Of a DNA stretch of 64,000 nt, positions 7,549-61,406 are shown piece after piece (the first letter of the stretch is position 1; each line of letters starts with the position of its first letter). The stretch spans positions 3,412,001-3,476,000 of the forward strand of contig CM052816.1 in assembly GCA_028534125.1 (NCBI GenBank), given 5' to 3'. Both the position numbers and the translations under genes were made by a program. The notes under the pieces are model-generated. The model was not told the DNA's origin and made no database searches. It was given only the letters and a program-made list of their open reading frames with translations. Source of the DNA: Lama glama. Its lineage: Eukaryota.

Positions 7549-8955
<1,407 letters not shown>

Positions 8956-26317: not shown

Positions 26318-26323
26318 AATAAA
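26318..26323 (+). terminator. MED7: MED7 polyadenylation signal
   Basis: AATAAA about 360 nt after the stop. Confidence 0.6.
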
Positions 26324-27169: not shown

Positions 27170-27350
27170 CAGTGGTTCTCGGTGTCATCCTGGACCAGCA
27201 GTGCTAGCTTCACTTGGAGACTTGGTTAAAATTCAGATTCTCAGGCCCACCCCAGACCTGCTAAATCAAACTCTGGGGTTGGAGCCCAACAAGCTGTGGT
27301 TTAAAGAGCCCTTAGGTGATTTCCATGCAAGCTGAAGATTAAGAATCACT
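27170..27350. mobile_element. MER5A-like hAT-Charlie MITE
   Basis: TIRs CAGTGGTTCTC...AAGAATCACTG and internal CAGATTCTCAGGCCCACCCCAGACC. Confidence 0.82.
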
Positions 27351-29266
27351 GATAAAGGTAAAACCTTTTCCCAGATAAGCTGGCAAAGTTTGAAGTGGCC
27401 ACAGGCCAGTTCTATATGTGAAATATTCATGCTTCCTTTTCTTTAAAAATGTTGGGAGTCTGGGCTGTTCCCAAGTAGAAAACCTCTCTATTAGGCAGCT
27501 AGTTGGCAAGTCTCATTGTTTCTTCTGCTATGTGTTTGGTATAGATCTTTGGGCTCCAGAGACTCCAGGAGACAGCCCAGGCTCTGAAGCTTAAGGTGAA
27601 GTAGGAGGAGAACCCCCTCATCTCCCTGTGGCAGAGCAAGGAAGACGTCACTTAACACTTGAGCAGCTGTCCAAAGGAATGTTCTTTCACCACAGCCCTT
27701 TTACAGCCTTGAGGAGGGTGTTGGGCCAAGAGGTACAAAACCAGTTTGGGGCTGCTTTGCAAATCCTTGCAGGGGGAAGAACTGATTGAATCACATTATC
27801 ACATTGTTAAAAGAGTCATGGCATCGTTTGTATATGAATGTTTGCTGAAGAGGAGGGTTAAGGGCTATAAAATTTCGTGTGGAATTTAAATTCTGACCTT
27901 GGGAGGGTCTGCCCTTACAGGTCTGTGGGTGAGACCTGACATAAACTCTTAACGCCTTCTGGTGAGAATTCTATAATGGAAGGAAGGAGCACTGGTGATC
28001 TGATAATTGTTATTGCTGACAGATTTAAAAGTTTATATAAAGACAGCCTGTGGGGATTGAGATACATCTCCAAACACCTGATCACAGTGGCTATTCCTGC
28101 TCGGTGATTCCTCCAAGTGAAATACCTGAAAGTGTAACAGGGGAACTCTTGCAGAGCCTGGGTCCCAGGCCACAGGGATTCTGGTGTCACTGTGCTGGAG
28201 TGGGGACCTGGGGTTGGCTTTCAAAGACTGGTAGATGGCTTAAGTACTGTGCAGGGGGTTAAAGGAGTATTGTATTAGTCAGCACTCTACTTGAACTAGT
28301 TTAAGCAAAAAGATGAACTTTGAAAGGATACTGTGTTGTATGGTTGAAGGACAAGTTGAAAGTCCAGACCATGAAGAGGACTGGGAGGGTCTCCAGGACA
28401 GCTGAGACTCAAACTCCATCTAGAACCCTCTCCCTGTCTCTCCTTTCTGGCTTTTCTGTTAGCTTCGTTCTCTGCAAACCAGTTTCTTTCATGGGTGGAG
28501 AACATGGCTGCTGACAGTTCCCAAGTGTTAACTCTTTCTGTACTTACTGTCTGGGAGTTGTCTCTCAGAAGGGGGGGGGGGTGGAAAGTGGAAGGCTAAT
28601 TAACCAGCCCAGAGGAAGGGATTAGGGGTGGCATACCTGATTCCAACTGGGCCATTCGGTTGGGGCCTGAATCTGGTAAGAATCTGACAGACCCCAATGT
28701 GTCCACATATGGGAGGATGTTGTCCACCTCTCCTTTTAAGTCCATTCAGTCATTTATTCATTACACTCATTTGTGACTATTGTCCCTTCTATTCCTTAGT
28801 TGCTGAGGGTATGAGGAGTGGGGAGGAAAATGGAAGAAAGGTACACAAGAAAACAAATGAGTTACTTTTTGAAGATATAAGTTTCTGTTTTAACCATTCA
28901 GCCATTGTAACACTCAGAAGAATCTTGCTTCCAATGATATTACTGTTTCCTGCTCAGAATGCCTCATCCATATTATCTTTTCAAGTTGTTTCTATGTTTA
29001 CACCTGTTAAGGGCTTTGGAAGGCCATTTCAACTGTGCTGTGCTGTATTTCAAGGACAAGGCCTGTGTTGGGTCCTTAGATCATGGGAAAACAGCAAGTT
29101 CAAGTGTCTCATGAGAAAATTGAAAGTTGGCATGATTCAGGGGGGAAAGGCTATTATGGCCGCCCCGTGAGGGAGGAGGTTGGAGGCAGAGAAGCAGGTG
29201 GAGAGTAGGTTACAGGACTGAGAAGGTCAAGGCAGGGGTTTGTTACATCCTCAATCTAATGAGAAA

Positions 29267-30787
29267 TGTCAGGGAGGGGGGCATTTCCCCTTCCACTCCT
29301 TGAGTTCTTGTGACCAGACTAATAAAGTTGGCACAAGACAGATTAACAGGAGAAAAGACATTTTAATTCGTGTACGAGGAGATCTCGTAGAAATGGGACT
29401 TAAGAAGTAGCCAAAGCAGACAGCATTTATACTCTTTAGATGAACAATACATTTGTAAGGAATTGACAGGACAAAGAAACTTAGGTTTTGGGTGCTTAAT
29501 TGTTACCCAACAGAAGTTCGTGTGCCTGATGTACAGGGAGGCCAAACAAATCAAAATGTCGGAGGCTGGAGCAGAAAAAGGTTCATTGCAGGGCTGAGCA
29601 AGGAGAATGGGTGGCTCGTGCTCGAAAAACCTGAACTCCTTGATGGTTTTTGGGGGGGAAGTTTTTAAAGGCAAAATTTAGGGTGAGGGCTGCAGGGTAT
29701 GTGACTTCCTTCTGATTGGTTGGTGGGAGGTAACAGGGCGATGCTCCAGGAACAGCCTGAAGTTACCATCCTCCCCTGGGGTGGAGGCCTTAGTTCCTGC
29801 AGAATTCAAAGATACTGTTCCGTATATTCCTTGAGAAGGAACCAGGACCCTGCCCCAAAGCTGCACTATTGTTTCCTGACTGTTCCTCCCTTGTCTCTGC
29901 ACTCCCCTCCTTCCCTGGTTAGCAACTGCTGGGTCTGCCCTCTGGAGCACAGGGGAGGTCAAGGAGGCTGAATGATGCCTACTTCCTTTAAACTAGAAAT
30001 GGGGGACATTGAAAGGGTTTGTACCCGGGAGGGCCCCGCAGGGATCTGCTCTGTTTCACAATCAGTGAAGAATCTAAACAATTTGGGCTTGGGGTAATGA
30101 ATAAAAAAAGTAAAAGGTTTGTTTATATAAGGCTTTTTGGCCCAAATTCTTAACCTCTAGTGATAAGGGTGCTCTTACCTCCGGATAACAGGGAGTGCCC
30201 CTTTCTCAGGTGAGATTTATTTTCTGCTTTGGAGGCGACAGAAAGGAAAGTCAGAGTGTCCCTCTTGCATTGGCCATTTCTTAGTTCGAAATAAGCAATA
30301 TGTCACTGTCGACTGAAATAAAATGCACAACCTAAGAGCTGAGAGTTACGTTTTATTCAAATGGACATTTCTGAGGACTCAGCCCAGGATGACAGCCTCT
30401 CAGATCACTCTGAGGGACCGCTCTGAAGAGGTAGGGGAGGAGCCAGGATATATAGGAGTTTTACAACAGAGACCAGGTAGTCGGAACATTAAAAGATTAC
30501 TGTTAAAGAAAACCAGACATCTCAAGTTAAAGAATTTAGTGCTTTACTATGTATGGGAAAGAGCAAATGTCTGGGCTCATTGAAATCATTCGTTTGACAA
30601 GCACCTGGCTCTCTAAGGCCAGTGTCCTGTCCTTTCACATTCTGAGTTTTCTCAGAGTGACCCTTGTGGGTGGCTGCAGCGGCTGATGACTCAATGGCTT
30701 CAGCATTCTTTGTTTACTGATATGGCTTGTATTTTTCGGTCCCACCATTGCAACATATTTTGGGGCAACCTGCCCTAAGCCACAACA
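29267..30787 (-). mobile_element. Solo ERV1-type LTR interrupted by two nested solo LTRs (about 29501-30058 and 30307-30744)
   Basis: TG...CA termini for each element. Near-TSDs GAAA/GAAG (outer) and TAAT/CAAT (first inner). The second inner LTR begins TGTCGACTGAAATAAAATGCACA, close to the reverse complement of the provirus LTR end at 37915-37939. Confidence 0.72.
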
Positions 30788-33349
30788 GAAGAATAGCACA
30801 CATGCATACATATAGCACTGTGCTGGCACTGTTATAATTGCCTCACATACAAAAAGTCATTTTATCCTCAAAACAACCCAACGAAATCAGTATAATTTTC
30901 TTCTTTATGAATTCAATAAGGTTTTTTTATTCTATGGATTTACTATAGTTTGCTCAATCATTTTCCTTTTGAGAAACATTAATTTTTTTAAAACACCTTT
31001 ATTGTGGGATGGTTCCTGTACAGTAAACTATGCATATTTCAGATGTACAATTTGATGAATTTTGATAGATGTATACACCAATGAAACCACAGCCACAATC
31101 AAGATAGCTTACATTTCCATCACTCCCCAAGAGGTGCAATTTTCATATTCTCAATTTATCTCTCCCCACACCCTTTACCCCCTGGTAACCATAAGTTTGT
31201 TCTCTAGAAATCAGTATGATTTTTTACACCTATATTACAGATGAAACAGAGGCTCAGAGAGGTGTCATTTACCCAAGGGCCCCAAGCTAGTGAGTGGCAA
31301 AGCCAGGACTGAAACTTTACAGTTTTAAGCACTCAGCCTCTATACTTCATCACCTCTCTACTGCATCGTATAGTTAATAGATCATAGATAATAAGTTGTG
31401 GAGTCAAGAGTGGACTCTGATATTTTGACCCTAAAATCCATACTCTTACACACTACATGATGCTGGCCTGAGAGAGAAGCAGATTTGTAGATGGAAATTG
31501 TGAGATTCCTTTGAACATGATAAAGCATTAATGTCAGACTTCTGCTGGTATCTTAAGGAGATAACTGTGCTCATAGCACTGATCTACCTGAAAACCCCTC
31601 TTAGTAGATATCACCCCCATTTTGTGAAACTGAGATTCAGTTTTGTGGTTCGCTAAGGTGGTCATGCAGATTAGAGTCTAGGTTGGGAGTTGTCAAACTT
31701 TTCCTGTGAAGAGTCAGTTAATAAATATTTTAGGCATTGAAGGTCTCTGTCATAAATCCCTGTCTGCTCCAGTACAAAAGCAGCCATTGACAGTGTGTAG
31801 ACAAATGAGCATGGCTACGGTCCAACTTCAGATATAGACACTGAAAACTTGAATTTCAATAATTCTTATGTGTTGTGAAATACTATTCTTTTAAATTTTT
31901 TTCCAAACCATTTAAACATGTTAAAATAATTCTTAGCTTGTGATCTGTACAAAAGCAGGCAGCTGAGTTGATTTGGCCAGCAGGAAAGTTATAGGATTGT
32001 TCTAGGGCCTAAGTGAGATTATGGCTAAAAAGCACTCAGCACAATGTCTGGTACTTGGTAAGCTTTCAAAGATCAACTAGTTCCTTTCCTGCTAAATCTT
32101 TGGCATTTAGAATCAAAGATTTAGGGTCTGGTTTCAGACTGTAATGTGAGGAGTCTAACAGTAGGTGGCATTCTTATCTCAAGTTTAGAAGCTGCAGCCT
32201 AGTGTCAGAGGAGGGACCAGGATGGAGAAACTCCAAGGTGCTGCTTTGATACCGAGCTTTTTATTCCACAAGTGAAACTTGCCTGTGCCTGACTGTGGCC
32301 TACAAAATTTCTTCTCATGGAGAGAACAGGATGTGAATTTTGTAAAATAATCAGTATTATGTTGCAAATGAGTTTTTTGATTAGAGCCTTTCTCCTAGGG
32401 CTGCCTGGACAAAACCTGCGGAAGACCTCAGGCACTGTTGGTTAGTTCTGAGTGGATGATGACAGTAAGATGTGTCTCACATTTGCTTAACACATATGAC
32501 CACGTTCTGTGAAGCTGTCCCCTGCTCTAGATTTGGAGTAAGGGAAGACAGTCAAAGGATTGGGGTCAGCTGGGGAGGTGTGGCTGGCTAGGAATGCACT
32601 GTATCATAACTACGAGGAGATGCCTTTTGGGTCTTTACTGATTTTCACAATCATTCAGTTATTCAACAAACATGAAGGTCTGCTGTGAATGCCGTGCAAT
32701 CGCTAAGAGCCATTAAGAACGAGAGTACTGATGTGGGAAGATATTCTGTGCATAATAAGAGCAAGTTGCTGGGTATAGTCTGAGTCCATATTGTGTCTGT
32801 CTATCTCTCTCTCCATACTCAAATTGGAAGTACATATTAAAAACTATAATATAGTTTTGGATGAGGAGACTGAGACTCAAAAATGTAACTTGCCACACAC
32901 CAACGACACTTCAGCTAGTAAATGGCAGAATTAAAATTCAGGTTTAAAAAAAGAGAAGAGAAAAGACACAGAGAAAGAAAAAGAGCAAGGCATGGTAGAA
33001 TTTGGGCTCCACCACTGACTAGCTGTGTCGCCTTCGTTTGACATATTAATCCCCACGATGGTCAATTTCCTTAACTATGGTAATTATAGGCCCATCTCAT
33101 TGGTACATCTCATACGTACCACCTAATGTTGAGAGTGAAAGAGAAGACCTGCACTAACTCTTTCTGAAACTCATTTGTCCCCAAGCAGCATACTCAGGTC
33201 TCAGTCTTGCTAATCGTCTGTGCAGATGCATCTGATCTGGAAGGGCTGAGGCGGTGTCTGAAAGGCTTAAGTGGTACAGGAGCCTGGGGCTCTGACTCAT
33301 TGCTACTTACAGAGGAGAGTAATTAAAAAAAAAAAGAGAGAGAGAGAAA

Positions 33350-34769
33350 GGCACAAATAATCGATAGCAGAAATGAAAAAGGGACGTTACTATAAATTTT
33401 ATAGATAGTAAGAAATAAAAAAATATTATGGATAACTTTATACCAATGAATTTGAAAATTTGGTAAAAAATGGACTAATTCTTATAAAACTACCATTCGT
33501 TTAAGAATAGGAAACTTGTGAGCTTTTTAATGATTAAAAAAAAAAACAACAGTTGACAATATCTTCTCACAAAGAAAACTTCAAGTTCCAGTAGCTTTGC
33601 TGATAAATTCTACCAAATGTTGTTAGAAAAAAAAATCTTATACAGACTCAGGGAATAGAAAACAAGGAGCATTCCTCAGCTCTTTTAATGAGACTATAAT
33701 AAACAGGATATGTAAAAATAAAAAGATTATGGCCAATCTGTTTATTTTAGGAATGTAGAATAGAAAATTAATGTGGTCTGTCACAATAATAGATTAAAGG
33801 AGAGAAATCACTTGATGATCTCCACAGATGCACAAAAGGCATTTTATAAAATTTAGCATCCATTCATGAAAAATAAAAAGAAAAACTTAGAACATTTAGG
33901 AATAGATGAGAACTTCCTTAATCTGATAAATAGTAGCTTTATAAAACCTACAGCATGTATTATGCCGAAGGTGGAAAGCTGAAACCTTTCTTTTAAGACC
34001 TGGAATGAAGCAAGGATGTCTGCTGTCACAACTTCCATTAAATATGTACAGATTGCCTGACCACATGGTAAGAAAAAGAATGTAGGATTGAAGAAGAAAC
34101 TAAACTGTCACTATTTTTTCAGAAAATATGATATCTACATAGAACATTAAGTATAATCTACAGATAATTTATTGATAAGAGTTTACTGGTTGGAGGGGAA
34201 AAAAATCAACATTCAAAAATAAAGTGTATTTCAGAATACCAGTAACAAACAGAAAGTAAATATTAGAAATAAGATATTATATAAAATATCATCTATTGAT
34301 ATGAAGTACCCAGGGGAAAAAAGAGATCAAGGAGTAAGTTGAAGACTTCCATGGACAATATGTTCAATTTTTATTGAGGCATAAAGGAAATCTAAATATA
34401 TGTAGAGATAGAACATATTTATGGATTGGAACACTCAATATTATAAAGAGGTCAGATTCACTCCATCCACATTGATCTGCAGATTCAGTGCAAGTCAGTG
34501 AAACTTCTACCAGTTTTTTTTTTTTAATTTGATGAGAAGATTCTAAAATGCATAGGAGGTACAAAGGACTCAGGTAACCAAGATACCCTTGATAAAATGA
34601 CTAAGGGGAGGATTTGCCCTGCGTGACACCAACATCTACCTACAGCTGCAGTAATTAAAACAGTTGGCAGAAGGATAGGCAAATACACTACTGGAACAGG
34701 CTAGAAAGCCAAAAACACAGAACAATGCCTGTATGATTTCTGAAATACGACAGAGATGGCATTACAAAG
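33350..34769 (+). mobile_element. Old L1 ORF2 fragment running into the assembly gap
   Basis: Degenerate ORF2 hallmarks: ATCTCCACAGATGCACAAAAGGCATTTTATAAAATT, ATGGATTGGAACACTCAATATT. Confidence 0.78.
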
Positions 34770-35269
34770 NNNNNNNNNNNNNNNNNNNNNNNNNNNNNNN
34801 NNNNNNNNNNNNNNNNNNNNNNNNNNNNNNNNNNNNNNNNNNNNNNNNNNNNNNNNNNNNNNNNNNNNNNNNNNNNNNNNNNNNNNNNNNNNNNNNNNNN
34901 NNNNNNNNNNNNNNNNNNNNNNNNNNNNNNNNNNNNNNNNNNNNNNNNNNNNNNNNNNNNNNNNNNNNNNNNNNNNNNNNNNNNNNNNNNNNNNNNNNNN
35001 NNNNNNNNNNNNNNNNNNNNNNNNNNNNNNNNNNNNNNNNNNNNNNNNNNNNNNNNNNNNNNNNNNNNNNNNNNNNNNNNNNNNNNNNNNNNNNNNNNNN
35101 NNNNNNNNNNNNNNNNNNNNNNNNNNNNNNNNNNNNNNNNNNNNNNNNNNNNNNNNNNNNNNNNNNNNNNNNNNNNNNNNNNNNNNNNNNNNNNNNNNNN
35201 NNNNNNNNNNNNNNNNNNNNNNNNNNNNNNNNNNNNNNNNNNNNNNNNNNNNNNNNNNNNNNNNNNNNN
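34770..35269. other. Assembly gap (500 N)
   Basis: Run of exactly 500 N. The L1 on the left does not continue on the right. Confidence 1.
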
Positions 35270-35640
35270 TATCACTATATAAGAGGGAAGAGAGATGGTT
35301 CTCACACACACACATATACACACACCACAGGAAACAAGGTAGTAAATGCCATGTAGAGATTGGAAACAGACTGGTTGGTTACTTTACAGAGAAGGATCAG
35401 GAGAAGTTCTCAGAAGGTGATGTTTAAGAAGGATCCGAATGAGGACCAGAAATCTGAAACCGGTGGGGTGAAGGAATGGGGATCTAGGCAGAGATCACGG
35501 TGGGGAAAAGGTCCTAAAGTAGAGGTACATTTGAAGGAACCCCAGGTGGCTAGAGCCCTGAACAGGGAGACAGTGGTAGGAGAAATCTGAAAAGTAGGCA
35601 GGGGCCAGATCACTGAGGAAGTCTGGGAAAGAGGGTAGAA

Positions 35641-35846
35641 TTTTTCTTTTCTTTTCTTTTCTTTTCTTTTCTTTTCTTTTCTTTTCTTTTCTTTTCTTTT
35701 CTTTTCTCTTCTCTTCTCTTCTCTTCTCTTCTCTTCTCTTCTCTTTCCTTTCCTTTTCTTTTCTCTTTTTCTTTTCTTTTCTTTTCTTTTCTTTTCTTTT
35801 CTTTTCTTTTCTTTTCTTTTCTTTTCTTTTCCTTTCTTTTCTTTTC
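35641..35846. repeat. Compound pentanucleotide microsatellite (CTTTT)n(CTCTT)n(CTTTT)n
   Basis: About 205 bp of uninterrupted pyrimidines. Confidence 0.97.
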
Positions 35847-38800
35847 CTGAAAGAACCATGGGAGGGTTGTAAGTGGGGTAATGACACAGTCTGATTACAT
35901 ATTTACTATTTACATCATTCTGCCCAAGTTTATTAGTTGCTGGCCTGATTGCACAGTCCTAGATTCTTTGCATCCTTGGTGTGTTGAATCATACCTTGTT
36001 AGCCTCAATATATTAGTAATAAGTATGGTAGAATTGAACTGAATTAGAAAATTTTTATCACTGACCTACTGGGCTTTGACTGAGTCTCAGAATATAACAA
36101 AAGTAGCCATAAAATGTATCCCAGATAAATAAGGCATGACCTGCTTCTGTGTGAGGCATTTCAGAATTTGTCCCCCCACCTTCAGTGGTGATTGAAGCAC
36201 GGTCAGTAATATCCCCTGTATTAAGGCAGAGAACAAGAGGAAAGCAGGTACCCAGAAATGTGCTTATTCCTTGGTAGAACTCCTATTTCTACCTGGATGA
36301 ATTCAAGTGCTTAGCATCATAAAGCTGGGAGGGCTATTAAAGACATATGGTCCAACCTCTTCATTTTATGGACAAAGTGAATTTCAGCACACAGTTCAAG
36401 GGGACAGCCTGTGTGAAGGCCCAGTGACAGAAGGGAGCTTGTGTTCAAGTAGGTGGAGGGAGGTCTCAGGATGGGGCCTCCTCCCACCCAGGTCTTCTTC
36501 AGAGACTGAAGGCCTGCGGGCAGGGCTGGAGAGGGCACACTCTAAGGGGAAGGGGTAGTACAGGCCATGTGTTGCCATCTCACTTTATGTCACAGAAAAC
36601 TGAAAAGCTGAATTCTCACATGAGCTCTCTGGATTTTTTTTAACTTTTGGCCATTAATTAAGAGAGAAATTTTTAAACACTATGTACAAAGCACTTCTGT
36701 AAGCCAGATATACTATTTGGGCCACCAGTTTATAGCATCCAGCTTTAGATCTCTTTTGAGTTCAGAGGCCGCTGGAGTCAGGGGTTTAATTCCCAGACAG
36801 TGCAGAATGCGTCGTCACAGGATGCCAAGGCCACCGTCACCTTCTCCAGGAAACCTGTCATGGGCTGCAAGAAGCCTTGAAATGGAGCACGAGTGCCTCC
36901 CTGTGAGGAAGTTACTGAGTCTTTAGATCAGAAGAGGGGTTAATGAAATACAAGGAAGGCAGACACAGTTTGTATGATTTAATGATGAAGAGCAAAAGTG
37001 AGATGACCTCTTCTGGAATCTAGGCCCATTTAAGCTCTCCAAGCCACAGTGTCCTCCTCCAAAATCAGGTTAGTGACAGCACCAGCCTGAGGGGTTCTGT
37101 GACGATTAAGTACATGTGGGTGCTTGGCACAGAGCCTGCTACACAGTTCACTCTCCAAAAACCTTGACTAATATCAATGCATATTTAAGTTGGGTTTTCT
37201 AAGTTCTTCCACAGCCCTTCTGCTCACTGTCACAATCCTCTGAGGGAGCAAGTGTTTCTGGTGCTACTTTACAAATGAAGAAATCAAGGCCTGGGGGAGC
37301 TTGGTAACTTGCAGGGATACTCAGCTTTGCAAGTGGCAGAGCTGGGGTCTGAACCCAAGCCTGGTCCGGACTCTGCTTCCTGACATTGTCCTGGTCTCCT
37401 TCAGTGAGCTGTGGTCTGTGTCCTCGCTTCCTGCAGCAGGCATGGTGAGGCATCATGGTTTACATTTCTGTAATTCTTAATTCTTGTGTCATCTATAGAA
37501 TGTCCCTCCCCACCTTCTACAAGGATTGGGTCAGTGGCCACTGCCGTCCCTGACCTTCAACACACCCTGAAAGGAGCTCAGGGCAGAGCTCAAGAACGAG
37601 GCACTCTGTGCTCCGGGAAAACTGGTGAAGCAGACTTTCAAATAGTTATACATTTTTAGGAGAAAGTTTGATGAATCCAAATTTCTTTCATTTTCCCGTA
37701 CTCAGAAAAGCACTAAAATCATTTGCTGAGATACCTGTCCCTCATGACTAGCAGCATCCTTCTACCCAGATGTGTGCCTGAGGGTATGTCTCCAAAATTA
37801 CAAACATGCTGATGCCCCCTGTCCTCACCTCACTGGAGCCATTCCTCAGAACTGAGAGGCCGTCTCCTGATCCTCAGTAAGTCCCCAGATAAAACTGAAA
37901 CTCACAGTCTCACACTGTGCATTTTTATTTCAGCTGACAGTTCTGGGGGCCACAAAGGGTAGCAGGGCAGACTTCTCTCCTTTGCCTGAACTCTGTGAGG
38001 GTCCAGAGCCCTTGGTAACAGCGGAGCCCCTGTGTCTGTCTGCCTCCTCGTGAGTCCAGATGAATTTGGGTAGACCTCTCCTGGTTTTCAGGTCTCCTGA
38101 CTATTGGTTGGTGATCCTGAGTTTTATTTGGAGGTGTATAATGCATACCTGCTCCCCTGCCTCTGCCCCCAGCTAAAAGGTACTGGTGCAGTCTGGACTA
38201 GGTGGTGAGGTGGGAGGCTGGCTTAATGTCTTTCCTAAATGAGGGGCTTCAGAACATCAGCCTCCATCTTTTAAGAGTTCTAACCCTAGGTGAACAAGTC
38301 CTTCTAGGAGAAGCTTGCATTTCTTTCCCTGTGGCTCAAGAGGTGAATATTCCACCAGGGCTCTCAGGAACTGTTATCTCATCTAGAGCATGTCCAAGTC
38401 CTGAGGCTGAAAAAAAAAATTGGAGGTGGGGCGTGGAGGGGAAAGAGGTCATTTAAAGCTCAAGCAAGTAAACAACTTTTTTCAACTGTTATTTATTAAC
38501 TTTATATTTTATATAAAGGTTTATATTGGAATACCTAATTCATGACTAAGTTTTAAAAATGAAGCTATAAGATCTCCAGTTGTATCTGTCTATATGTTTG
38601 TGTACCTTATATATATGGTATGTCTCTACTTCTGGAGAGTATTACCAAAATTAATTTATAAATGGGCCCTATTTAATTGACTTAAAGGAAATTAAGTGCT
38701 TATATAAATTCTTAGAAATGTAAGAGACTAACCCAAAGGAATTTCAGGTTCACGTGAACTAGAAAATATTCAGTATTGAATTAATATTTGGTATTAAAGT

Positions 38801-41219
38801 TAGTTTGAGTTTGTTGCTTTAATTAATACAGACATGTCTTTAGAGCTATCAACATTAAGTATAATCCTTTTCTTGTAACTGAGTTTACTAGAAGTCAAAT
38901 AAGATCTTATAACTCTTAGTAAAAAGAGAAATAACTTGGTATGATGAAATATTTATGTTAAGTGTAAATGAAATAGCTTTTCGGGAAATTCTTTACAAAT
39001 AACTGTATTTTAGGACTATCTACTTAAAAATAGTCTTTCTAGATATTTGGTAACTTGAAACTTGAGAATTTTTCTGAATTAAATTAAATGATGGAAGTTT
39101 ATTAAATATCTAGGTCATCCCCAAATGAAATAAGGTAACTGGAATATTAATTACTGAACATAGGCTTCCTCTACAGAGAAATTACAGATATTTAGGACTA
39201 CTAATAAATACATTTGATGCCACACTGAGACTTTTTCTTTAAGAAAGCATGTTTTTTTTTAGAAGTTATAAATAGTATTTAAAGTTTGCCAATCTACATA
39301 ACACTAATGTAGAAGACAATTCGTTAAGTGCTTACTTCCTAGTTTTGACTGCAAACTAAGGGGTTTTTTTTTAACAGTTGAGAATTCTAATTAATATATG
39401 TAATTAAGACTACTATGTTAATATGCAAGAAAAAAGAAGGTTTAAGAATTACACGTGCATTTTGCTAAGGAAAAAGAAAAGAATTTTGTCCTAAAGCTAA
39501 TTATTTCTAAATGGGAAAGAAAATAAGGAACAGATTAATATGGATATAGAAAGTTGTATAAGATTTGTGAGAAGAAAAAGAAACTTTAAAAAGGAATTTT
39601 ATGTGTGGTCAGGACTGACTACTATTAGAATAAATTGAAGTTAAAAGGGCAAAATCTCCTTAGAATATTGATCTGTTTTTTAGAGCAGATTGTGCATTTT
39701 CTTTACATTTTAAGTAATCTGTGGTAACTTTCTATACTTGCCTTTGAAATCTCTTATTGTCACTCAGTTAAGTGAATAAGTATTGTTTCACATTACCTAT
39801 GATGCTATTTGATCAGGTGTTTTAAAACTTTTTGATGTTTTTTACAAACTTCCTGAAGCTCAAGTTCTAATTGAAGTTCATTTGACCTCCAGCTAACTTT
39901 GAGGTTTTCCAAAGGGCCCTGGAGCACCTCAAGAGAATTGTTTTCTCTCCTTATCAAAGAGAGAAATATTAAACTAATTAGGCTTATTTGGTATGTTAAA
40001 TTACATGGGAAGCATTGCAAATGAGTGGTGATAAATATTCTTAGGTTATTTTGCAGGGAGAAATGTTATTAAGTATTCTAGGAACTATTGGAATTCCTAA
40101 AAACCTGCTCTGTCTTGGTAGAATGTTATCAGTTGTAGCTCTGGTTATTATCTTAAAATGTTATATGTAACAGCAGTTAACAAGTTTCTTTGTCAACTGC
40201 ATTGTAATCAGATCTTTAACCATGAGTTTTTAAAGTCTTTGTTGTTCATAGAAAGTTATTGTTTGACTGTGATGCTTTTGCAAAAATGCTTTGTCTTCAA
40301 GAAGATTAACAGAAAGGACTTTGGACAAGCATAGGTTTCTGATAAAATTCAGGTCACACACTGAACTGGGTAAGAAATTTAAAAATTCCAATGGAAATCC
40401 TGATGGCTTCATAAAACTGTCAACAAAAGATCAAGAATTAGTTACATAGGACTGAGTGAATTGATAAATATGGTTATAGTTTTAATAATTTTTTTGTCTG
40501 AAATATTACTGGCTTTTAATCTGTTTTCCAGATATAAGGAAACCTTTCCCCTTAAGCTAATTATGACTTACAGCAATTTGGTAAATTATACCTTTGTAAG
40601 TAGAATTGAAACATTTATCTTTTCTCTCTACCTGATCCCTCTGAAATTGTAAACCCTTAGGTTACTAGCAGCCTTATCTGGTGAATAATGGAGGCTACCT
40701 CCTGACAGATGCAGGAATCTCAAGATATTTTTCAGACCTTGAGAAGAGAGGAATTCACCCTTACCGAAATCTACAGATACTGCTGGTGGAATCTGAGGGC
40801 AAGCCCTTGGGCTGCCTTTCCTGGCATTGAGAAATCTTAGAAATTCAATCTGAGATTCCTTATAAAAAGTTCCAGCAAAGCCAATTTTTTTAAGCATATA
40901 TGATTAATTAATTACACTTGTGTAAATAATCAGGCCAAGTATTGAAGCCAGACTTATTTTTGCAAAGAAATTTGTCTTAATTTGATAGGAATCAGGGTAA
41001 TTTCAGACAGAAAAATTATGTTTCAGTGGATATTAAATTCTAGTGTTGTTAATTGAGGTCTGTGTTTACTGCCTAAGACTCACTTCCCAGATAGCCCCCT
41101 GTTTTTATGTTACATTATTGTAAAGTTTAATTGGATTATTAAAAGGACACTCGAAGGTTTGTTCTGAAGCTTATCACAGTAATCTATCCTTGGGTGCAGG
41201 TCAGATGCCCCACGATCTA

Positions 41220-41380
41220 CAACCAGGAGATTATGCATATTGGAAAAGCCATCATTTAAAGGACTGTCTCCAACCTAAATTGAAGTGTCCTTATCTGGTG
41301 CTCTTAACTAGCTCATACACAAAAAAACCTGAAGGAAATTGACCTTTGGATTCATATTTTCTGCTTCAAAAGGGCCCCTG
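41220..41380 (+). pseudogene. ERV integrase C-terminal (GPY/F-type) remnant
   Basis: Translates QPGDYAYWKSHHLKDCLQPKLKCPYLVLLT, then after a frameshift LKEIDLWIHI. Resembles QPGDxV...LxPRWKGPYxVLLT...WIH. Confidence 0.75.
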
Positions 41381-41527
41381 CACTGGACTAGTCTATACAG
41401 AAAACTGCTAACTTCAAACTCACCTTAAAACAGAGGAGAAGCTACATTCACACCAGGACAAGAAGAAGATGACATCAGGCTATCTGAGGATGCTGGACCT
41501 GACCCATATGATTATTTGTAATGTTTT

Positions 41528-41700
41528 CAATATAATAATTATATTAGATAGTAATGCATTCTACAATTATAATTATATAAATATTTATTTATACATAATA
41601 CATTTAATATAAATATATATTTAATATATAAATAAATATATGTTATATATAATTGCATAATATGATTCTTTATAACATAATATAATTCTTTATAACAATT
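41528..41700. repeat. AT-rich low-complexity tract inside the ERV
   Basis: Degenerate (TA)n/(TAA)n between the pol and env remnants. Confidence 0.8.
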
Positions 41701-41739
41701 TCTTAGACTTTTGCCTAAATTTTCTATCATGGGCATAAA

Positions 41740-42430
41740 TCCTATGCTGAGTTTAAAAATTAATCCAGTTGTTGGGCTTATGGTTAATTACCCACATCCA
41801 GTACTTCTGGTTACCCTGGTAGAATTATCCTCTGCAAGGCTCTAACTGGATGGGCCTTAGGAAATTTATTCTAGAAGAGAGATGTCATCGTTCTGTTCAG
41901 GCCACTTGATATTACTACTCAACTTGGCCAATCAATGGTATTTCCTCTGACCATGGTTATAAATAAGAATTTTCTTTTAAAGTCACTCGAGCTCCATCAG
42001 AGCAACAAGCTAAATTTCAGTCAAATAATACAGATTCCTGATTACTAGAAGTAGGACCCTCCTTCAATTACAGGATGGAGTTATATGACTAACATCAGAC
42101 TGCGGTCGTTGAAGTTTAAAATCCCTGCTTACATTGGGAACAATTAGGCTGGGTACCTTATGAATAATACCAGTATATCATTACTTTTAAGATAGAGGTT
42201 GGTACAGAACAGACTGGGTCAGCTGAGCTGCGGATATACTGGGCTGCACCCGATGGAGCTCTTGGCTTAAATATTTACTTATGACCCTATGAGTAATGCT
42301 ACTAGCTGTATTATTTGTCTTCTGCCTATCTTTACAAGATTGTTGTTTCTTGCATTACCAGATGTGGGGCTGAGCCTCTGATAAAAATGATGGCTAGGCA
42401 ACTTGAAATCATTGACCAAATATATAGTTC
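41740..42430 (+). pseudogene. ERV env remnant, disrupted and internally deleted
   Basis: SSCWAYG*LPTSSTSG resembles the SU CWxC...LP...GLPW region. A hydrophobic TM-like remnant lies near 42300-42360. Many stops. Confidence 0.5.
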
Positions 42431-43653
42431 TTTATGACTTCAAGATTATAATAGTGTAACCCCAGATATGGGAAGAAGCAACAAGAAGCAACTCTCTATC
42501 TGGAACTTAACAGACCAGTAAGACAGGTGGTCCAGAGACTTTTGGCTGCTGTTTGCAGGGCACAGTCCAGTAATAGCACACTGAGTGGCCTATTGACGAA
42601 ATCCTGGCCTGACCTAGGAAAGAGCATTCTTAGCACCATGGGATAAAATGGTCAAGAACTCGTTGAATTTATAACCTTAAGGGGGCACTGCCAGATAAAG
42701 AGGGTCGCTCGCCACCTGGTTCTACAGGGATTAAGTCACCAGCCACTGTGGTGGCTGATGTTCAACACACCCTGAAGGGAGTTCAGGACAGAGCTCAGTC
42801 ATGAAGCAATCTGTGCTCTGGGAAAACTGGTAGAACAGGCCTTCAGACAGATGTTTTTAGGAGAACATTTTATCCAAATTTCTTTCATCTTCCCGTACTC
42901 AGAAAAGCACTAAAGTCATTAACGGAGATATCTGTTCCTCGTGACCAGCAGCAACCTTCTACCCAGATGTGTGCTTGATTGCCCTTCTCCAAAATCACAT
43001 ATATGCTCACCTCCCATACCTGCCTCTTAGGAGCAGTTCCTCAGAGCTATCTGAGAGGCAGTCTCCTGGGCCATAGATAGTCCTCAGTAAGTCCTCAGAT
43101 AAACTGAAACTCACAGCTCTCACGCTGTGCATTTTTTAATCTCAGGTGACACTTGCTAATGGAGGACTTGACGATAGTCAAGTTCCGAGGCTGGGGACCA
43201 GCCATCGTGTCCACAGAGCAGGAATTAGTACCCCGCCCTTACCTGAAGGCCAGCTGGCTCTCATCTTAGAGGCCAAGGATAAGTGCATCTTGCCTTGGGG
43301 TGACTGGTCTTCGCTCGGGGGTCTCCTGCTGAGCATGCCTCTGGTCTCCTTCCTGTTTACTCCCTTATCTCCTCTGTCAGCACCGGGAGTCCTCTAGGAG
43401 CTGGGAAAGAAGGGACTGCTCCGGAGGACAGCTTTGCCTGTCTGTTGGAAGCTGCCGAGCCCCCAGTCACCTGGAGCTAACAGAAACCTGAAGCCTTTGC
43501 GTGGTCTCCTTCTCAGCGGGCGGGGTTACGCGATCTGCCCTTTGGGGGTGAAGGAAGTTGCAGTCTGAGGATTAAGACTCGTTTTGACATATCAGGCTGG
43601 GCGGCACACCAACCACTCACTCTGCTTTCTCTTTCCTTCAGGCTGGTACCATC

Positions 43654-43699
43654 ATGCATCCTTGGGTAGCCATTCCAGGCCTCATCCTACTTCTGACAA
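43654..43699 (+). CDS. HAVCR1: HAVCR1/TIM-1-like coding exon 1 (signal peptide MHPWVAIPGLILLLT)
   Basis: Acceptor TTCCTTCAG ends at 43641, ATG at 43654, phase-1 donor A|GTAAGT at 43700. 46 nt, resembling the TIM-1 leader MHPQVVILSLILHLA. Confidence 0.88.
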
Positions 43700-45596: not shown

Positions 45597-45929
45597 ATGG
45601 TGTCATGTCTTACGTAAAAGTGGTTGGGATGGTGGGTCAGCCTGTTGTACTGCCCTGCACCTATACTGGCAAAGTCACAACCACGTGCTGGGGCCATGGG
45701 CCATGTCCTTGGTCTCGCTGCACAGCTGAAATGATCTCGACTGATGGATATGGTGTCACCTATCAGCAGAGTCCGCGTTATTCACTAAAGGGAGATATTT
45801 GGAACGGGGACGTGTCTCTGACCATAGACAATCCAACCGTGCAGGACAGTGGCCTGTATTGTTGCCGTATTGAAAGGAAGGGCTGGTTCAACGATAGAAA
45901 ACTCACCATATCTTTGGAAATAAAGCCAG
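45597..45929 (+). CDS. HAVCR1: HAVCR1/TIM-1-like IgV exon
   Basis: 333 nt between TTTACAG| and G|GTGAG. Six Cys typical of TIM IgV, GDVSLTI...DSGLYCCR, and FG-loop GWFND (phosphatidylserine-binding MILIBS). Closer to TIM-1 than to TIM-3 (GIMND). Confidence 0.95.
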
Positions 45930-48714: not shown

Positions 48715-49074
48715 CTCCTCCAAGGACAACTATCAAAACTATGACAACTTGGCCAACCACCACGACCAAGAGAACTTGGCCAACTGCCACCACCAAGAGA
48801 ACCAGGCCAACCACCACGACCAAGAGAACTAGGCCAACTGTCACCACCAAGAGAACTAGGCCAACTATCACCACCAAGAGAACTTGGCCAACCACCACGA
48901 CCAAGAGAACTTGGCCAACTGTCACCACCAAGAGAACCAGGCCAACCACCACGACCAAGAGAACTTGGCCAACTGTCACCACCAAGAGAACCAGGCCAAC
49001 TGTCACCACCAAGAGAACTAGGCCAACTATCACCGCTCATCCAAAGCCAGGACCCACAAAGAAACCCCAGCCAG
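48715..49074 (+). CDS. HAVCR1: HAVCR1/TIM-1-like mucin exon A (360 nt, minisatellite-encoded)
   Basis: Acceptor TTTCTAG ends at 48714, donor CCAG|GTAAAC at 49075. Phase 1-1, open frame, about 52 Thr in 120 codons. Confidence 0.9.
48747..49034 (+). repeat. 27-bp coding minisatellite, 10 full units plus 1 partial
   Basis: Unit AC[TC][TA]GGCCAAC...ACCAAGAGA encodes T[W/R]PT[T/A/V/I]TTKR. Confidence 0.97.
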
Positions 49075-49327: not shown

Positions 49328-49417
49328 GTCCACCTACCAGGCCTCCAATGACAACTACAACTTGGGCCAACACCACCGCCCGTCCAAAGCCAAGACCCAC
49401 AAAGAAACCCCAGCCAG
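49328..49417 (+). CDS. HAVCR1: HAVCR1/TIM-1-like mucin exon B (90 nt, duplicate of exon A)
   Basis: Same acceptor (TTGATTTCTAG) and donor (CCAG|GTAAAC) as exon A. Phase 1-1 and open: GPPTRPPMTTTTWANTTARPKPRPTKKPQP. Inclusion in mRNA is inferred. Confidence 0.72.
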
Positions 49418-51203
49418 GTAAACAGACGTGCTTCTGAGCCCAGGGGGCTTTTACTGAGAGGGTGTAGACCATCCAGGGCCTTGTGTAAAGCAGAAGTAGA
49501 ATCGAGGGGAAGGGTTATTACCTGGGTTCCAAGTGTGGCTTCACAGAGACTGTGAAGCCCTGTCCCATATTATATTCATCTTTTGTACATGTAAGCATTT
49601 TTAGAGTGAGGGGGTAACAATAGCTTTTTGTCAGATTCTCAAAGGAATTCAATAGTAGCAAAAAGAAAAAAAAGTCCAGCTCATTGGCCTCAGCCATCTA
49701 AGCAGAATGGTGTGGATTTGGCCCACAGCATTATGAAGAAAAAATAGGGAATGCCAGAATACAGGGGCAGAGGAATGAGATTCTGTCCACACAAGGAGCT
49801 CTGAATAGCAGTCATTTAATCCCTTCTCAAGTCTAACCCAACACTTGAGGATGAGATTTCAGCAAGGTTAGTGTTTACTCTGTTTCCTGTGTCAGGAACC
49901 AAGTTAAGTGCTTTACAAGTATTATGTCACTTATTTCTTAGGACACCCATGTGCACTGTGGGTGTGATTCTTTGCTACTTTATACCTGTGCTGATCGAGG
50001 CACAGAGTCAAAGCTCAATGTTGACAGTCATACGAATAGAAAGTGGTTGAGTCTGGATTGTCTCCATTAATTTGAATTTTGGACCTGTGCTATCCTCTAT
50101 ACTGAACACAGAGCTTATGTTTGGATGAATTTGTCCTGTTCTGATCTCCTCGCTGGAGAAGCCTTCGTACAATTACCCTGACTTTTCAGGGTGTCAGTGA
50201 CTTACACAGTTTTGCTTCTAGCATCCTTTAATTTAGTAACGTAGCACAGAAACGTTATTTATACCAATGAAAAAGTAAATATCGAATTTAAGGACTTATG
50301 GGACTTCAAATACACACGTTTGTTTTTTTCAGTTCAGGCTATTCAGTTCATACTTCAAATTTCCGATAGATAAAAGTTTAGGTTTAACGCAAATGGAGAA
50401 TAATTGGACTTACAGATAGGAAAGTAGCTTTCCATTCTGAGGACAAGTTTGGGTTCAAATTTTCTATTTTTAAGGCTGAAAATAAAACTTTTTAGTGAAG
50501 ATTCTCAAAGACTCCAACGCCTTTGGAACTTTGAGGTGGCTCTGGATTCTGAGGAGCAACAGACATGTCACAACCTCTTAGCTAAAAAATATCTGATGGA
50601 ACATACTGATTTCCCTCGACTCCCACTGCACCATGTGTATATTTAACTAGGAGGGATCTGAAGGACTGGGCTATGAACTGAGTTTGGAAGAGAGGGCTGT
50701 AGGTTAAAAGTGGAATTTTGGAGCCATAAAAGTTTGTTAGGAAAACAGCTTTGTTCTAGAGAATCTGTTAACTTTCTTGTTACTGATTTAGCTTCTTCAT
50801 ACTTAGTCTGTGCCCGCAAAGGTGGATTAGAGCATGTGGTTTGGTGACCACGTCTAAGTTACTGACTTTGTTTAAAGCAGAGGTTCAGAAGGAAAGTGCT
50901 GGTCTCTGTGTCTGTGTGACCTCCTTGGGGATAGTATTCATTGATTCTGGTACTTACCCTGATAGTTTCCGAAAGAGTTTGTGTTTAGAGTTGAACTTTA
51001 CAGTATAAGAAGGAAGTGAACACTGGAGCAGATCCAGGGCAGGGATATTTATCGTTACCTCCACTCCCTCTCTGTGCTCTGTGTACCTTGTACACACTAG
51101 TTGCCTAAAATATTCATGGACGGATTGGATATAAAGTTGTGGGAGCACTGAACTCATGCCCAGCAGGTAACTTTAGTTTCTCTCCTGAACACCTAGGATC
51201 ATC

Positions 51204-51330
51204 GGGGGAGGGGATAGCTTAGTGGTAGAGTGCCATGCTTAGCATGCACGAGGTCCTGGGTTCAGTCCCCTGTACCTCCATTAAAATATATATACACCTA
51301 ATTACCTCAACAAAACAAAAACAAACAAAA
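51204..51330 (+). mobile_element. tRNA-derived SINE
   Basis: Same head, A and B boxes, CCTAATTACCTC body motif and (CAAAA)n tail. Confidence 0.88.
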
Positions 51331-51837
51331 ACTCTCATCATCACTGGCACCCTGTTAAGAGCATGCATTCTGGAATGAGATAGATCTGACTTCAGTGCTG
51401 GCCCTGACTACTCCGACGAGCTTTGTGACTTGAACAAATGTCTTATCCTCTCTGAATCTCTTTTTATCATTTGTAAAATGGATGGAATGTTGCCAATCTT
51501 GTAGGATTCTTGCCAGGATTAAATGAAATAAAGAGCTTGGGACACAGGTAAAAGGGGGTAAGTGATAGATACAGTGGCAAATAGGACTATTACTTAGAAT
51601 GTCCAGAAATACATACCCCTGGCTGGTGTGGGTAGCATGTACGATTTGGAAATGTCCATGTGCACATCCGCATTTTTCTCAATTAAATGAACTAGACTTG
51701 ACTTTAAACTTATTACTGGACTTGCTCCCTTGGGCCAGCACCTTATAACAATTAAATCCAAATTAAGCTGGTCTGAACCAAACTGATCACCTGTATTTAT
51801 GCTTCCTCTAAGCCCCAGACCCTAAATACACCCAGGA

Positions 51838-51862
51838 GGCGCCCCCTGGCTATCGTACTGAG
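51838..51862 (-). promoter_or_regulatory. Candidate CTCF site with upstream motif
   Basis: Minus strand reads CTCAGTACGATAGCCAGGGGGCGCC: core plus a CAGTAC upstream-like motif. Confidence 0.55.
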
Positions 51863-53172
51863 CTTTCATTTCACACGGACACTTTGAGCTGGGTTGAGGA
51901 TGCCAACCCAGGCTCCGAAGAGGCATGTCCCTCTGAGATTCTGCTTTTCCTCTCTGAAAAGTCTTCCCCGCTCTTCCCAGTCTAGGCAGGTCCCATATTC
52001 CTTTGAAATATAAGATTGGCCTGTCTTTCCTGTGGTGGAGACAGGTGATACTGAATCCTGTCATCTTTCCGAGATAACTCCATTACCCATGGTGGTAAAC
52101 TGGGGGAGCGACACACACTAAACCCCTTTTTAATGCTGAGCTGGCTTCTGTGTCCTTGTGCCTGTGCTGTATCCAAACAAAGTCACGTTTTGCAAGACTC
52201 CTCGTGGGTATGACTCATTGTACTCAGGAGCTGCCACTCTGTAGGGGACCCGCAGTATGGCGGACCTTCTGCCAGTCATTCCTGGAAGTTGGCTGATGTA
52301 AAATGGACCTGCAGTGAGACTCAGAGAGGGGCCGATTCAATTGGGATTAGTTAATGGGGACATTTGGTTTTGAAAGTGGAATCCTTAGTGGGAACTGTTT
52401 CCGGGCACAAAAACAAAGTGAAAGTGGATAAAAATACAAGGTAACAGCAGGAGGAGCAGCTGCAACCCACACTCTGAGGCTGTGAGGAGGAAGACAAGAG
52501 GAGTGGGCAATCGTTCCTTAAAATACGTCACTAAAACCTAGTCAAGGTAGAGCTTCCCAGAGCGGAACAGACGTTGGAGCAGCTGCGTCCCCACGGCTTA
52601 AGGGACTTCTGCCGTCTTGGCAGGGTCTCTGAGGCTCTCCGGCCAAATGCTTACTGTGCCCGAGCCAGACTTCAGTGAGCTAAAGCCTCCCAGAAGCAAA
52701 GAACATTAGTCTGGAAGGAATTTTGGTCGTCATCTTGCCTGCCACCCACCTTTTGACGGATAGATGTGCAGCAAACTCACACAGTATCTCATTTAATTAT
52801 TTTGGGGCGGGCCTTGTTTATTGCCATTGCCAGACTGTGGCGGGGGGTACCCTATAGTTCAGCTTTGGAGACAGACAGCTTCCAATTCAACTGCCAGTTA
52901 CTAGCTGCGTGCCTGTGGGCAAGTCGTGGTGTGTTCCTTACAGGATGTTTGTGAGGGATGAGGGCCATGATGTTTGCAAAGTGCATTGCACAGCGTCCCT
53001 CCCCCACTGCTCCCTCAAAGATTAGTAATAGCTCTGATATTTGTCTCATATGGTGCTAAGTGCTTTACCTGCACCATCTAATGTGACAACTTGATGAGAC
53101 GGGTGCTATCAACATCTTATAGTTCACGGTTGCCCCAGCTAGAAGTATAAATATATATATATTTTTATAAAT

Positions 53173-53204
<32 letters not shown>

Positions 53205-53393
53205 ATACATACATAAATGTGTATGCGAAGGACCTTGATCAAGGTCATATTGCCAAGGGACAAGATCAGCACTGAACTCAAATTTTGTGTGATTCAAGTC
53301 CATGCTGGTTTTACGTCACCCATTCAATACCCGAAGGACTTACTTAAGGTTATAACATAAATCATAAACAGAACCTAGACTGTAGATATTGTC

Positions 53394-53791
53394 TTTTGTT
53401 TTTAATTGGCAGTTACAATGTGTCCATTTCTGGTGTACAGCACAATGTCCCAGTCATGCATATATTCATTTTCATATTTTTTCATTAAAGGTTATTACAA
53501 GATATCGAATATAGTTCCCTGCACTATGCAGAATAAATTTGTTTTTTAAATCTATATTTATATATAAAGAGTAACATTTGCAAATCTCAAACTCCCAAAT
53601 TTATCCCTTCCCACCCCCTTTCCCTGGTAACCATACGATTGTTTACCATGTCTGTGAATCTGTTTCTGTTTTGTAGTTGAGTTCATAGTGTCCTTTTTTC
53701 ATTTTTTTTTTTTTTTAGATTCCACATATGAGTGATATCATATGGTATTTTTCTTTCTCTTTCTGGCTTACTTCACTTAGAATGACGATCT
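53394..53791 (-). mobile_element. 5'-truncated L1, 3' end, antisense in a TIM-1 intron
   Basis: TTCTGGCTTACTTCACTTAGAATGAC is the reverse L1 end. 15-bp TSD ACTGTAG[A/G]TATTGTC at 53379-53393 and 53792-53806. Confidence 0.88.
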
Positions 53792-54841
53792 ACTGTAGGT
53801 ATTGTCCATGGCTGTCTAGTGTCAGAATGAATAAAATGCAGGTGCGGTAATGTAAAGATTGGGGGGGATGGTTAGTGCACTTTCATTGCCCCTGAGGTTC
53901 TACAGTCAGTAGTCAGGGAGTTTCCCAGACCCGTAGTATCTTCCCGCGATGGGAGTGGAATGCGTGTGGGGCCCTGAGCTGAGATTCTTATCCTGTACTG
54001 GGGCTGGAAACTCGTTAAACCACTTCAGGTCTGTTTCCTCATCTATAAAATAGATTCAAAAAATTGTTGTAAGGATTTAGAGTGCTGTGCTAGATACTCA
54101 GCAAAAAGAGAGTCCCGTATTTGACCTATGGTTGCTTAGGTGGGCCAACAGTCTATGTTCTGTGTGACAAAAGAGATATTTAAAAGCCCTATTAAAATTT
54201 GGACATTCAAAACTTTCAGGCGTGATATCCATTTATAGCGGGGTTTTAGGTTGTGTAGGATATATTGGTCTTGGGGCTGATGTAACAGCTGTTTTACAAA
54301 GTACTTCTGGATCAATGTCTAGGCAGCTGGAGTATAATGTCGGGGTTGTAGGCCACCTTTTTGGATACCTTAGTACATTTTACTCACATTTGGAATGCAA
54401 AACCAACGTAATGTCCATTTCGAATAGGATGGTTCCGATCTTTGGATGTGCGTTTGGCATCTGAGCACTGATGGGCAGTTTCTTAACTGTCGTGAAAACG
54501 TTGATTACCTAACTTTAGATGGGAATTTTTATACTGGTCCTGAGAATGGGCCACTGTCACTCCTAAAATTGTAGGTAAACCTTTGTGTACATGTATTTTT
54601 CAATAAAGAAGAAAAAAGTGGTCTTGTTGTCAAAAGGTCTTTGACAAAATGGTTAAGAAACACAGCCTTACTGGTTAAGTTAATAAATGTTCATAATTTG
54701 GTGTAACTCTTGCAATGCCTCCAGCATTTGGCTGTAGTATTATTCAACTTTTCATTCATTACCAGAAAGCAATGTGAATCTATATAGTGTTTTCAGTGAA
54801 AAGTCAATATTTTTTGCTTAATTGTCCCTCTTGTTTTACAG

Positions 54842-54897
54842 ATGGGAATGACACTGTGACCAAGTCTTCAGGTGCCCTTCAGCCTAACAACCAAAGT
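54842..54897 (+). CDS. HAVCR1: HAVCR1/TIM-1-like juxtamembrane exon (DGNDTVTKSSGALQPNNQS)
   Basis: 56 nt between TTTTACAG| and |GTAAGC. Matches TIM-1 DGNDTVTESSDGLWNNNQT. Confidence 0.9.
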
Positions 54898-57724: not shown

Positions 57725-57839
57725 CCTGCAGTGACGGTAGAAAGTCCATGGAGGACCAACAATAAGGGAATCTACATTGGACTCTGTATTGCCGCCATAG
57801 TGTTATTGGTCACGATTTTGACTGTCTTGCTTGTCAGAA
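57725..57839 (+). CDS. HAVCR1: HAVCR1/TIM-1-like transmembrane exon
   Basis: 115 nt between CCTTAG| and A|GTAAGT. Encodes KGIYIGLCIAAIVLLVTILTVLLVR, like TIM-1 KGIYAGVCIS. Confidence 0.92.
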
Positions 57840-58722: not shown

Positions 58723-58759
58723 AATATTTGTGCCTGGGAGGCAAGGTGGAGCTTCTACG
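58723..58759 (+). CDS. HAVCR1: HAVCR1/TIM-1-like first cytoplasmic exon (KYLCLGGKVELLR)
   Basis: 37 nt between AATTCAG| and CG|GTAAGT. Phases 1 and 2 join the flanking exons in frame. Confidence 0.82.
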
Positions 58760-61303: not shown

Positions 61304-61406
61304 CGTGATATCATTTAAGGACAGTCACTTTGGAGCTTTGAAAAATGCAGCTGTAAAGCATGTCCGAGCAGAAGACAATGTCTACATTATTGAGGACAGT
61401 CAGTAA
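61304..61406 (+). CDS. HAVCR1: HAVCR1/TIM-1-like terminal coding exon (VISFKDSHFGALKNAAVKHVRAEDNVYIIEDSQ*)
   Basis: Acceptor TTTCTGCAG ends at 61303. Contains the TIM-1 RAEDN[I/V]YI tyrosine motif. TAA at 61404-61406. The 8 exons sum to 1140 nt (379 aa). Confidence 0.9.

Follow-up and report, generated by a model that had tools for sequence, protein, structure and literature searches.

A basic, length-variable mucin stalk in the HAVCR1/TIM-1 gene of camelids

TIM-1 binds phosphatidylserine through its IgV head, and its mucin domain is needed for efferocytosis (PMC11164124). Stalk length is reported to govern TIM function, with ∼ 120 amino acids cited as a threshold, and glycosylation is said to give the human TIM mucin domains a negative charge (10.1101/2020.07.02.184580). 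A review credits the TIM-1 mucin domain with no known specific function (PMC8482821). In a 2024 report, the ectodomains of human, rhesus and mouse TIM-1, whose stalks are not basic, had no advantage over the isolated head in binding PS and PE; their mucin domains improved binding to apoptotic cells, by a route left unexplained (PMC11575270). HAVCR1 has been identified as a target of positive selection (PMC2483296), and it is already known that its mucin domain evolves fast, is polymorphic in length and has been rebuilt repeatedly.

We analysed a 64-kb stretch of llama DNA (the window) that contains a HAVCR1 gene with an unusual stalk. Among the closest described systems is human TIM-1 (KIM-1), which it resembles in the position of the stalk between the IgV domain and the membrane-proximal segment, in its richness in Thr (62 of 135 residues in human, 60 of 150 in the window), in the expansion of a repeat within an exon and in length polymorphism. 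The human stalk has 5 Lys/Arg, 3 Asp/Glu and no Trp (net charge +0.015 per residue) and keeps a second stalk exon, whereas the camelid stalk has 37 Lys/Arg, no Asp/Glu, 6 Trp, a nine-residue unit and a first exon present in two copies. Whale, hippo and ruminant TIM-1 shares with the camelid form a first stalk exon whose Thr tract is expanded, a homologous exon start and tail, and a closely similar transmembrane segment and cytoplasmic tail. It differs in lacking the nine-residue unit, in being near neutral (the top genus among the matches listed is Bos, +0.095) and in keeping the second stalk exon. Among ruminants, one Bos paralogue carries an Arg-rich patch, and in buffalo, goat and sheep-like models the first exon module is repeated as a whole. 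Strongly basic Thr/Pro-rich stalks also occur in the rodent TIM paralogues of Arvicanthis (XP_076793113.1; +0.17 over 218 aa) and Scotinomys (KAL6043384.1; +0.18 over 101 aa), but these are irregular and unlike in sequence and their heads lack the WFND motif, and we infer an independent origin.

The HAVCR1 gene in the window

Eight predicted exons on the plus strand join into a single open frame of 379 amino acids, comprising an IgV domain, a mucin domain, one transmembrane segment and a cytoplasmic tail. The signal-peptide exon (43654..43699) encodes residues identical to those of the alpaca and Camelus models. It is followed by the IgV exon (45597..45929; Pfam V-set E 9.4e-13), with six Cys and a WFND loop motif, by mucin exons A (48715..49074) and B (49328..49417), and by a membrane-proximal stalk exon with N-glycan sequons (54842..54897), a homologue of the segment in which human TIM-1 is shed (PMC11164124). 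The transmembrane exon (57725..57839), a first cytoplasmic exon (58723..58759) and the last coding exon (61304..61406), which carries a TIM-1-type tail with a conserved Tyr and the stop codon, complete the gene.

The best PDB matches of the IgV domain are mouse (E 1.1e-42) and human TIM-1 (E 1.1e-34); TIM-3 (E 2.1e-32) and TIM-4 (E 6.2e-31) are weaker. Its six Cys align to those of solved TIM-1 and are invariant across the IgV alignment, and its WFND aligns with the mouse and human TIM-1 chains. The WFND (W/L-F-N-D) residues form the metal/phosphatidylserine pocket of the FG loop, and binding by the window IgV is predicted. The cytoplasmic tail matches mammalian TIM-1 tails. Because the frame departs from RefSeq Vicugna pacos HAVCR1 (XP_031528567.1) at a single residue outside the repeat, and because the IgV domain is 90% identical to that of Camelus, we conclude from the sequence that this is an intact HAVCR1/TIM-1 of a South American camelid. 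The PDB ranking, the TIM-1-type tail and the near identity to alpaca thus bear out the assignment to TIM-1 made in a preliminary description of this DNA.

An IgV-only tree of 31 rows, from which the rhinoceros row is missing, recovered a camelid clade (100/99) and placed a TIM-4-type row on a long branch among the TIM-1 rows. The camelid stem was long (0.58). Between the window and Camelus, 11 of 110 IgV residues differ, against 3 of 119 in the non-mucin remainder for dromedary (p 0.025) and 4 of 119 for Bactrian (p 0.06), a hint that the camelid TIM-1 IgV head evolves fast.

Upstream, the same strand carries two ordinary neighbours: a GARIN-family gene, with a Rab2B-binding domain (7549-10714), and MED7 (25251-25958). 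The mammalian cluster order is MED7-HAVCR2-HAVCR1-TIMD4. Just one TIM IgV was found in the window, and no HAVCR2 (TIM-3) was seen between MED7 and HAVCR1 (25958-43654), an interval in which a 500-N gap (34770-35269) could hide the gene. Fused camelid models place TIMD4 downstream of HAVCR1, and in one fused model outside the window a TIM-3-type head precedes TIM-1. Current alpaca RefSeq models and one C. ferus model extend HAVCR1 into TIMD4 exons, the alpaca ones under the name TIMD4; such fusions would reflect either transcriptional read-through or misannotation by which camelid HAVCR1 has been hidden under a wrong name. Two direct repeats of ∼ 470 bp (37494-37942 and 42696-43154; 76% identical, 5.2 kb apart) resemble the two LTRs of an old element whose end lies ∼ 500 bp ahead of the HAVCR1 start codon, and this putative element might affect the HAVCR1 promoter.

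Structure and origin of the stalk

Exon A spans 360 nt between a canonical acceptor (...TTTCTAG) and a canonical donor (GTAAAC). In the reading phase that the IgV exon imposes, its 120 codons specify 14 Lys and 17 Arg, 5 Trp, 52 Thr and no Asp or Glu. The other two plus-strand frames contain stops inside the exon, and a stop-free minus-strand frame across it was rejected as an antisense shadow of the repeat. Most of the exon is a 27-bp coding VNTR (48747..49034, plus strand) of ten full units (48747-49016) and a partial one from 49017, which encode T[W/R]PT[T/A/V/I]TTKR throughout; five full units have Trp and five Arg at residue 2. Tandem Repeats Finder reports a period of 27, 10.7 copies, 85% matches and a score of 389, so the array is not a product of chance. 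Exon B adds 30 codons with 6 Lys/Arg and no Asp/Glu. Together the two exons encode a Pro-rich stalk of 150 amino acids with 60 Thr (40%), 37 Lys/Arg, 6 Trp and no acidic residue. The counts given in the preliminary description (10.5 units, 31 basic residues, 5 Trp and no acids in exon A, 6 further basic residues in exon B) were all confirmed.

An assembly artefact was considered as a source of the array and rejected, the units being heterogeneous and the repeat being present in five camelid assemblies. The window and alpaca RefSeq arrays differ in length (10 vs 16 units), and units 2 and 3 are of different types in the two; the window array therefore represents a distinct allele or species and not solely a collapsed assembly.

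The exon A module has been duplicated in tandem: exon B and its flanking sequence form a second copy, without the expanded array; the intron copy at 49075..49267 matches 49418-49609 at 166 of 192 aligned bases. Since exon B has no KR pair, the array probably grew in copy A after the exon duplication. Most placental TIM-1 models, among the matches listed, have two short stalk exons of ∼ 63 aa in total, and the ancestral second, Glu-bearing exon would be expected in the intron at 49418..54841. A tblastn search of this 5.4-kb intron with 55 peptides gave no match better than E 0.05. With a profile of the same exon, the window gave no match with an E value under 0.72, and a shorter control exon was found at E 1.4e-4. 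The intron possibly holds a decayed remnant. The exon does not define the family, and its apparent absence makes the camelid form a variant of TIM-1.

The basic composition extends beyond the repeat. Lys and Arg make up 2 of 10 residues in the non-repeated lead of exon A, 4 of 19 in its tail and 6 of 29 in exon B, compared with 2 of 9 in the unit. Because the non-repeated parts are equally basic, the density of charge was not made by the repeat. This, the exon duplication and the undetected second exon uphold the view that the stalk has been rebuilt. The sequence thus shows that the first stalk exon was duplicated and the ancestral second exon apparently disappeared, that Thr codons across the duplicated module changed to Lys or Arg, and that one 27-bp unit in copy A expanded into a VNTR that now sets stalk length at 5 to 23 units. 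As read from the gene models, exon duplication, exon loss, the shift to Lys/Arg and the VNTR all appear to predate the Old/New World camelid split, and the unit motif is retained in both camelid tribes. The split is dated to ∼ 16.3 million years ago (PMC12127551).

Stalks of camelids and other mammals

Protein searches, one list of which comprised the best 120 of 956 matches, yielded 140 distinct proteins. After exclusion of 16 non-mammalian or multi-Ig proteins, 124 and the window remained; 115 rows were cut to the stalk and 10 were dropped (boundary not found, or stalk < 20 aa). The sample covers whales, hippo, ruminants, carnivores, pangolins, rhinoceros and bats; pig, peccary and horse are absent. 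Among the matches listed, the T[W/R]PTxTTKR unit occurs in camelid proteins only: it is common to the window, alpaca and three Camelus species and was found in 0 of 112 non-camelid models (61 genera; pig, peccary and horse absent). A repeat shared by laurasiatherian TIM-1 proteins would have spoken against the preliminary description, and within this sample, which has neither pig nor horse, it is not such a shared feature. The models contain 5 units in dromedary, 10 in the window, 13 in Bactrian (a low-quality model), 16 in alpaca RefSeq and 23 in C. ferus, copy numbers that may be wrong, chiefly in the Bactrian and the fused C. ferus models.

The 112 non-camelid stalks among the matches listed have a median net charge per residue of +0.016 (range -0.091 to +0.12) and a median Lys + Arg fraction of 0.062 (maximum 0.14), and every one of them contains an acidic residue. 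The three camelid stalks have none, and their net charge per residue is +0.21 to +0.26. The preliminary description contrasted the camelid unit with PTTT-type repeats of primates; these are present in the human and bonobo models, but the stalks of lemur, loris and galago are 62-63 aa long and have no repeats.

The median of the longest stalk per genus is 65 aa (mammalian TIM-1 models among the matches listed), so the stalks of many mammals fall below the ∼ 120 aa cited for human TIM-1. Long stalks arose by duplication of whole exons, repeatedly, in tree shrew, rabbit, sloth, bats and buffalo, and by repeats within an exon in apes, whales, ruminants and camelids. The distance from IgV to transmembrane segment is 139-237 aa in camelids, 97 in dog and 168 in human. 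Among the 206 TIM-family proteins that have a 60-aa segment rich in Ser/Thr, a Bos paralogue (+0.28) and an Arvicanthis paralogue (+0.27) exceed dromedary TIM-1 (+0.23), and a TIM-4-like protein of the spadefoot Spea (+0.22) comes close to it. Buffalo TIM paralogues are acidic, and stalk charge varies widely in the family. Predicted basic stalks are thus not unique to camelids in the wider TIM family.

Possible roles of the basic residues

The camelid TIM-1 stalk most likely still works as a spacer. Our preferred reading, which we hold tentatively, is an O-glycosylated spacer of variable length that holds the IgV head off the cell surface and in which the basic residues are a selected modifier of charge. 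The Thr runs would carry sialylated O-glycans; the two or three basic residues of each unit would offset part of the glycan charge and may thin glycosylation. A long, near-neutral stalk, as opposed to a strongly anionic one, would meet less repulsion from the anionic surfaces that the IgV head must reach, and the VNTR would set its reach. That basic Thr repeats can be glycosylated is indicated by the PTTTK repeat of Drosophila Sgs3, also a basic Thr-rich tandem repeat, where charge steers the choice of O-glycosyltransferase and an isoform suited to positive substrates modifies it (PMC6115407). Sgs3 is an unrelated, secreted insect glue mucin, and the analogy is one of chemistry only.

For the window stalk, with 60 Thr and 37 Lys/Arg, we computed that the positive charge is fully offset by 0.62 sialic acid per Thr. 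With one sialic acid per occupied Thr the net charge is +22, +7 and -8 at 25%, 50% and 75% occupancy respectively, and with two at 50% occupancy it is -23. The term polycationic, used in the preliminary description, therefore holds for the bare peptide but not for a stalk sialylated to that level, and the glycosylated human TIM mucin is described as negative (10.1101/2020.07.02.184580).

The main alternative, also quite possible, is that the charge arose neutrally, from a small number of transversions, in a tract of Thr codons, that were copied by duplication and by the VNTR, in a stalk of which only the length matters. Unrelated mucin domains, if long enough, can substitute for the TIM-1 stalk, which counts for this alternative, as do the many lineages that expanded their mucin stalks independently. 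Single-step amino-acid changes from Thr codons lead to Lys/Arg in 8-17% of cases and to Asp/Glu in 0%, so selection is not needed to explain why the stalk lacks acidic residues. The 31 basic residues of exon A are not 31 independent events, a count that we rejected; they collapse to a handful of changes multiplied by copy number. The KR codons are invariant across the ten units, with all six variable sites elsewhere, but this is not significant as a sign of selection (p 0.18), and units ending in KT or NR are present in other camelid models. Basic stalks also recur elsewhere in the family, in the Bos, Arvicanthis and Spea proteins above, alongside the acidic buffalo paralogues.

Neutral drift accounts less well for a shift that reaches beyond the repeat, affects both exon copies and includes the loss of an exon with acidic residues, or for whale Thr tracts of similar length that are almost without Lys/Arg. 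A human-for-mouse stalk swap altered TIM-1 activity in one background, an effect that the paper does not reduce to length alone (PMC11575270). In the alignable 16-aa exon tail the two camelid copies have 3 and 5 Lys/Arg, and the other genera among the matches listed have 0-2 (50 of 50). Derived states in this tail are Lys/Arg in 5 of 12 camelid cases vs 6 of 59 elsewhere among the matches listed (Fisher p 0.016, a post hoc test chosen after the data were seen), and one of the five camelid tail Lys, also present in hippo and two whales, may be ancestral. The balance leans slightly to selection, neutral drift being nearly as likely; the basic shift was probably favoured as a modifier and would not provide a separate binding site.

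An under-glycosylated, polycationic stalk might instead bind PS membranes (through a Trp anchor) or heparan sulfate directly, as a second module behind the IgV head. We consider this unlikely. The regular K-R-x-[R/W] spacing and the lack of acids would suit such a role, and the computed charge stays positive as long as no more than half of the Thr carry one sialic acid each; it is negative at 75% occupancy, and at 50% with two sialic acids. Most units can do without Trp, as the 21 Arg and 2 Trp units of the C. ferus model show, and a polycationic stalk would stick to the anionic coat of its own cell. The title of a cited work reportedly names basic residues in the mucin-like region of HSV-1 gC. 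That region is O-glycosylated and contributes to glycosaminoglycan binding (PMC4382219), an analogy from an unrelated viral envelope protein, and the unexplained route by which the TIM-1 mucin domain aids apoptotic-cell binding (PMC11575270) could be of this kind. Equally improbable is the broader form of the idea, a ligand-binding module of Lys, Arg and Trp for anionic membranes or glycosaminoglycans that is tuned by copy number and to which the rodent and bovid paralogues would be convergent. If it were true, repeat number would set the strength of dead-cell clearance allele by allele.

The preliminary description also raised a ladder of protease sites at the KR pairs, gated by O-glycans and releasing the IgV head at variable lengths, which we regard as very unlikely. 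Ten KR pairs lack a following Pro and five of them have Arg at P8. The furin consensus is R-X-K/R-R, minimally R-X-X-R, and a basic residue at P4 or P6 is required. The 150-aa stalk contains no R-X-K/R-R, R-X-X-R or K/R-X-K/R-R motif, and each KR has neighbouring Thr residues that probably carry glycans. Pro-protein processing and shedding can be under the control of O-glycans (PMC4382219), but TIM-1 is shed near the membrane by ADAM17, ADAM10, MMP3 and MMP14 (PMC11164124), and camelids keep that segment. A convertase ladder is therefore not supported; the ten KR pairs are possible sites for trypsin-like proteases.

When short spliced products spanning the IgV-mucin joins were sought, 0 of 1516 candidates passed, which is uninformative either way; of 24 sequencing runs, 8 are recorded as RNA and contain a portion of the IgV-mucin stretch, with shares of 0.07-0.41, unaligned data that are no evidence on inclusion. 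That exon A is mostly skipped in mRNA, and hence free to drift, is very unlikely: a partial dromedary GenBank model (KAB1281196.1) joins IgV directly to the membrane-proximal exon and stalk-skipping isoforms (stalk < 20 aa) are modelled in other mammals, but the splice sites are canonical, the phase is symmetric and the frame is open in five camelid assemblies, the computed alpaca and dromedary RefSeq and Bactrian gene models contain both exons, and mice without the mucin domain lose efferocytosis (PMC11164124, PMC11575270).

The sequence of camelid TIM-1 is already in public gene models. A record-level literature search, covering few subscription papers, found no publication about the TIM-1 stalk in camelids, and HAVCR1 is not mentioned in the main text of an all-camelid comparative genome study, whose supplements could list it (PMC12127551). 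A stalk this basic, combined with exon duplication and apparent exon loss, appears to be a lineage variant for which we found no description. It is no new kind of system, rapid and repeated rebuilding of the stalk being known behaviour of HAVCR1. For work on these animals, KIM-1 assays or antibodies raised against the stalk of another species would be unlikely to succeed in camelids. For the family, camelids are a natural extreme, with a stalk more basic than that of any other mammalian TIM-1 model among the matches listed, and their series of 5 to 23 units on an otherwise near-identical protein would make length separable from charge.
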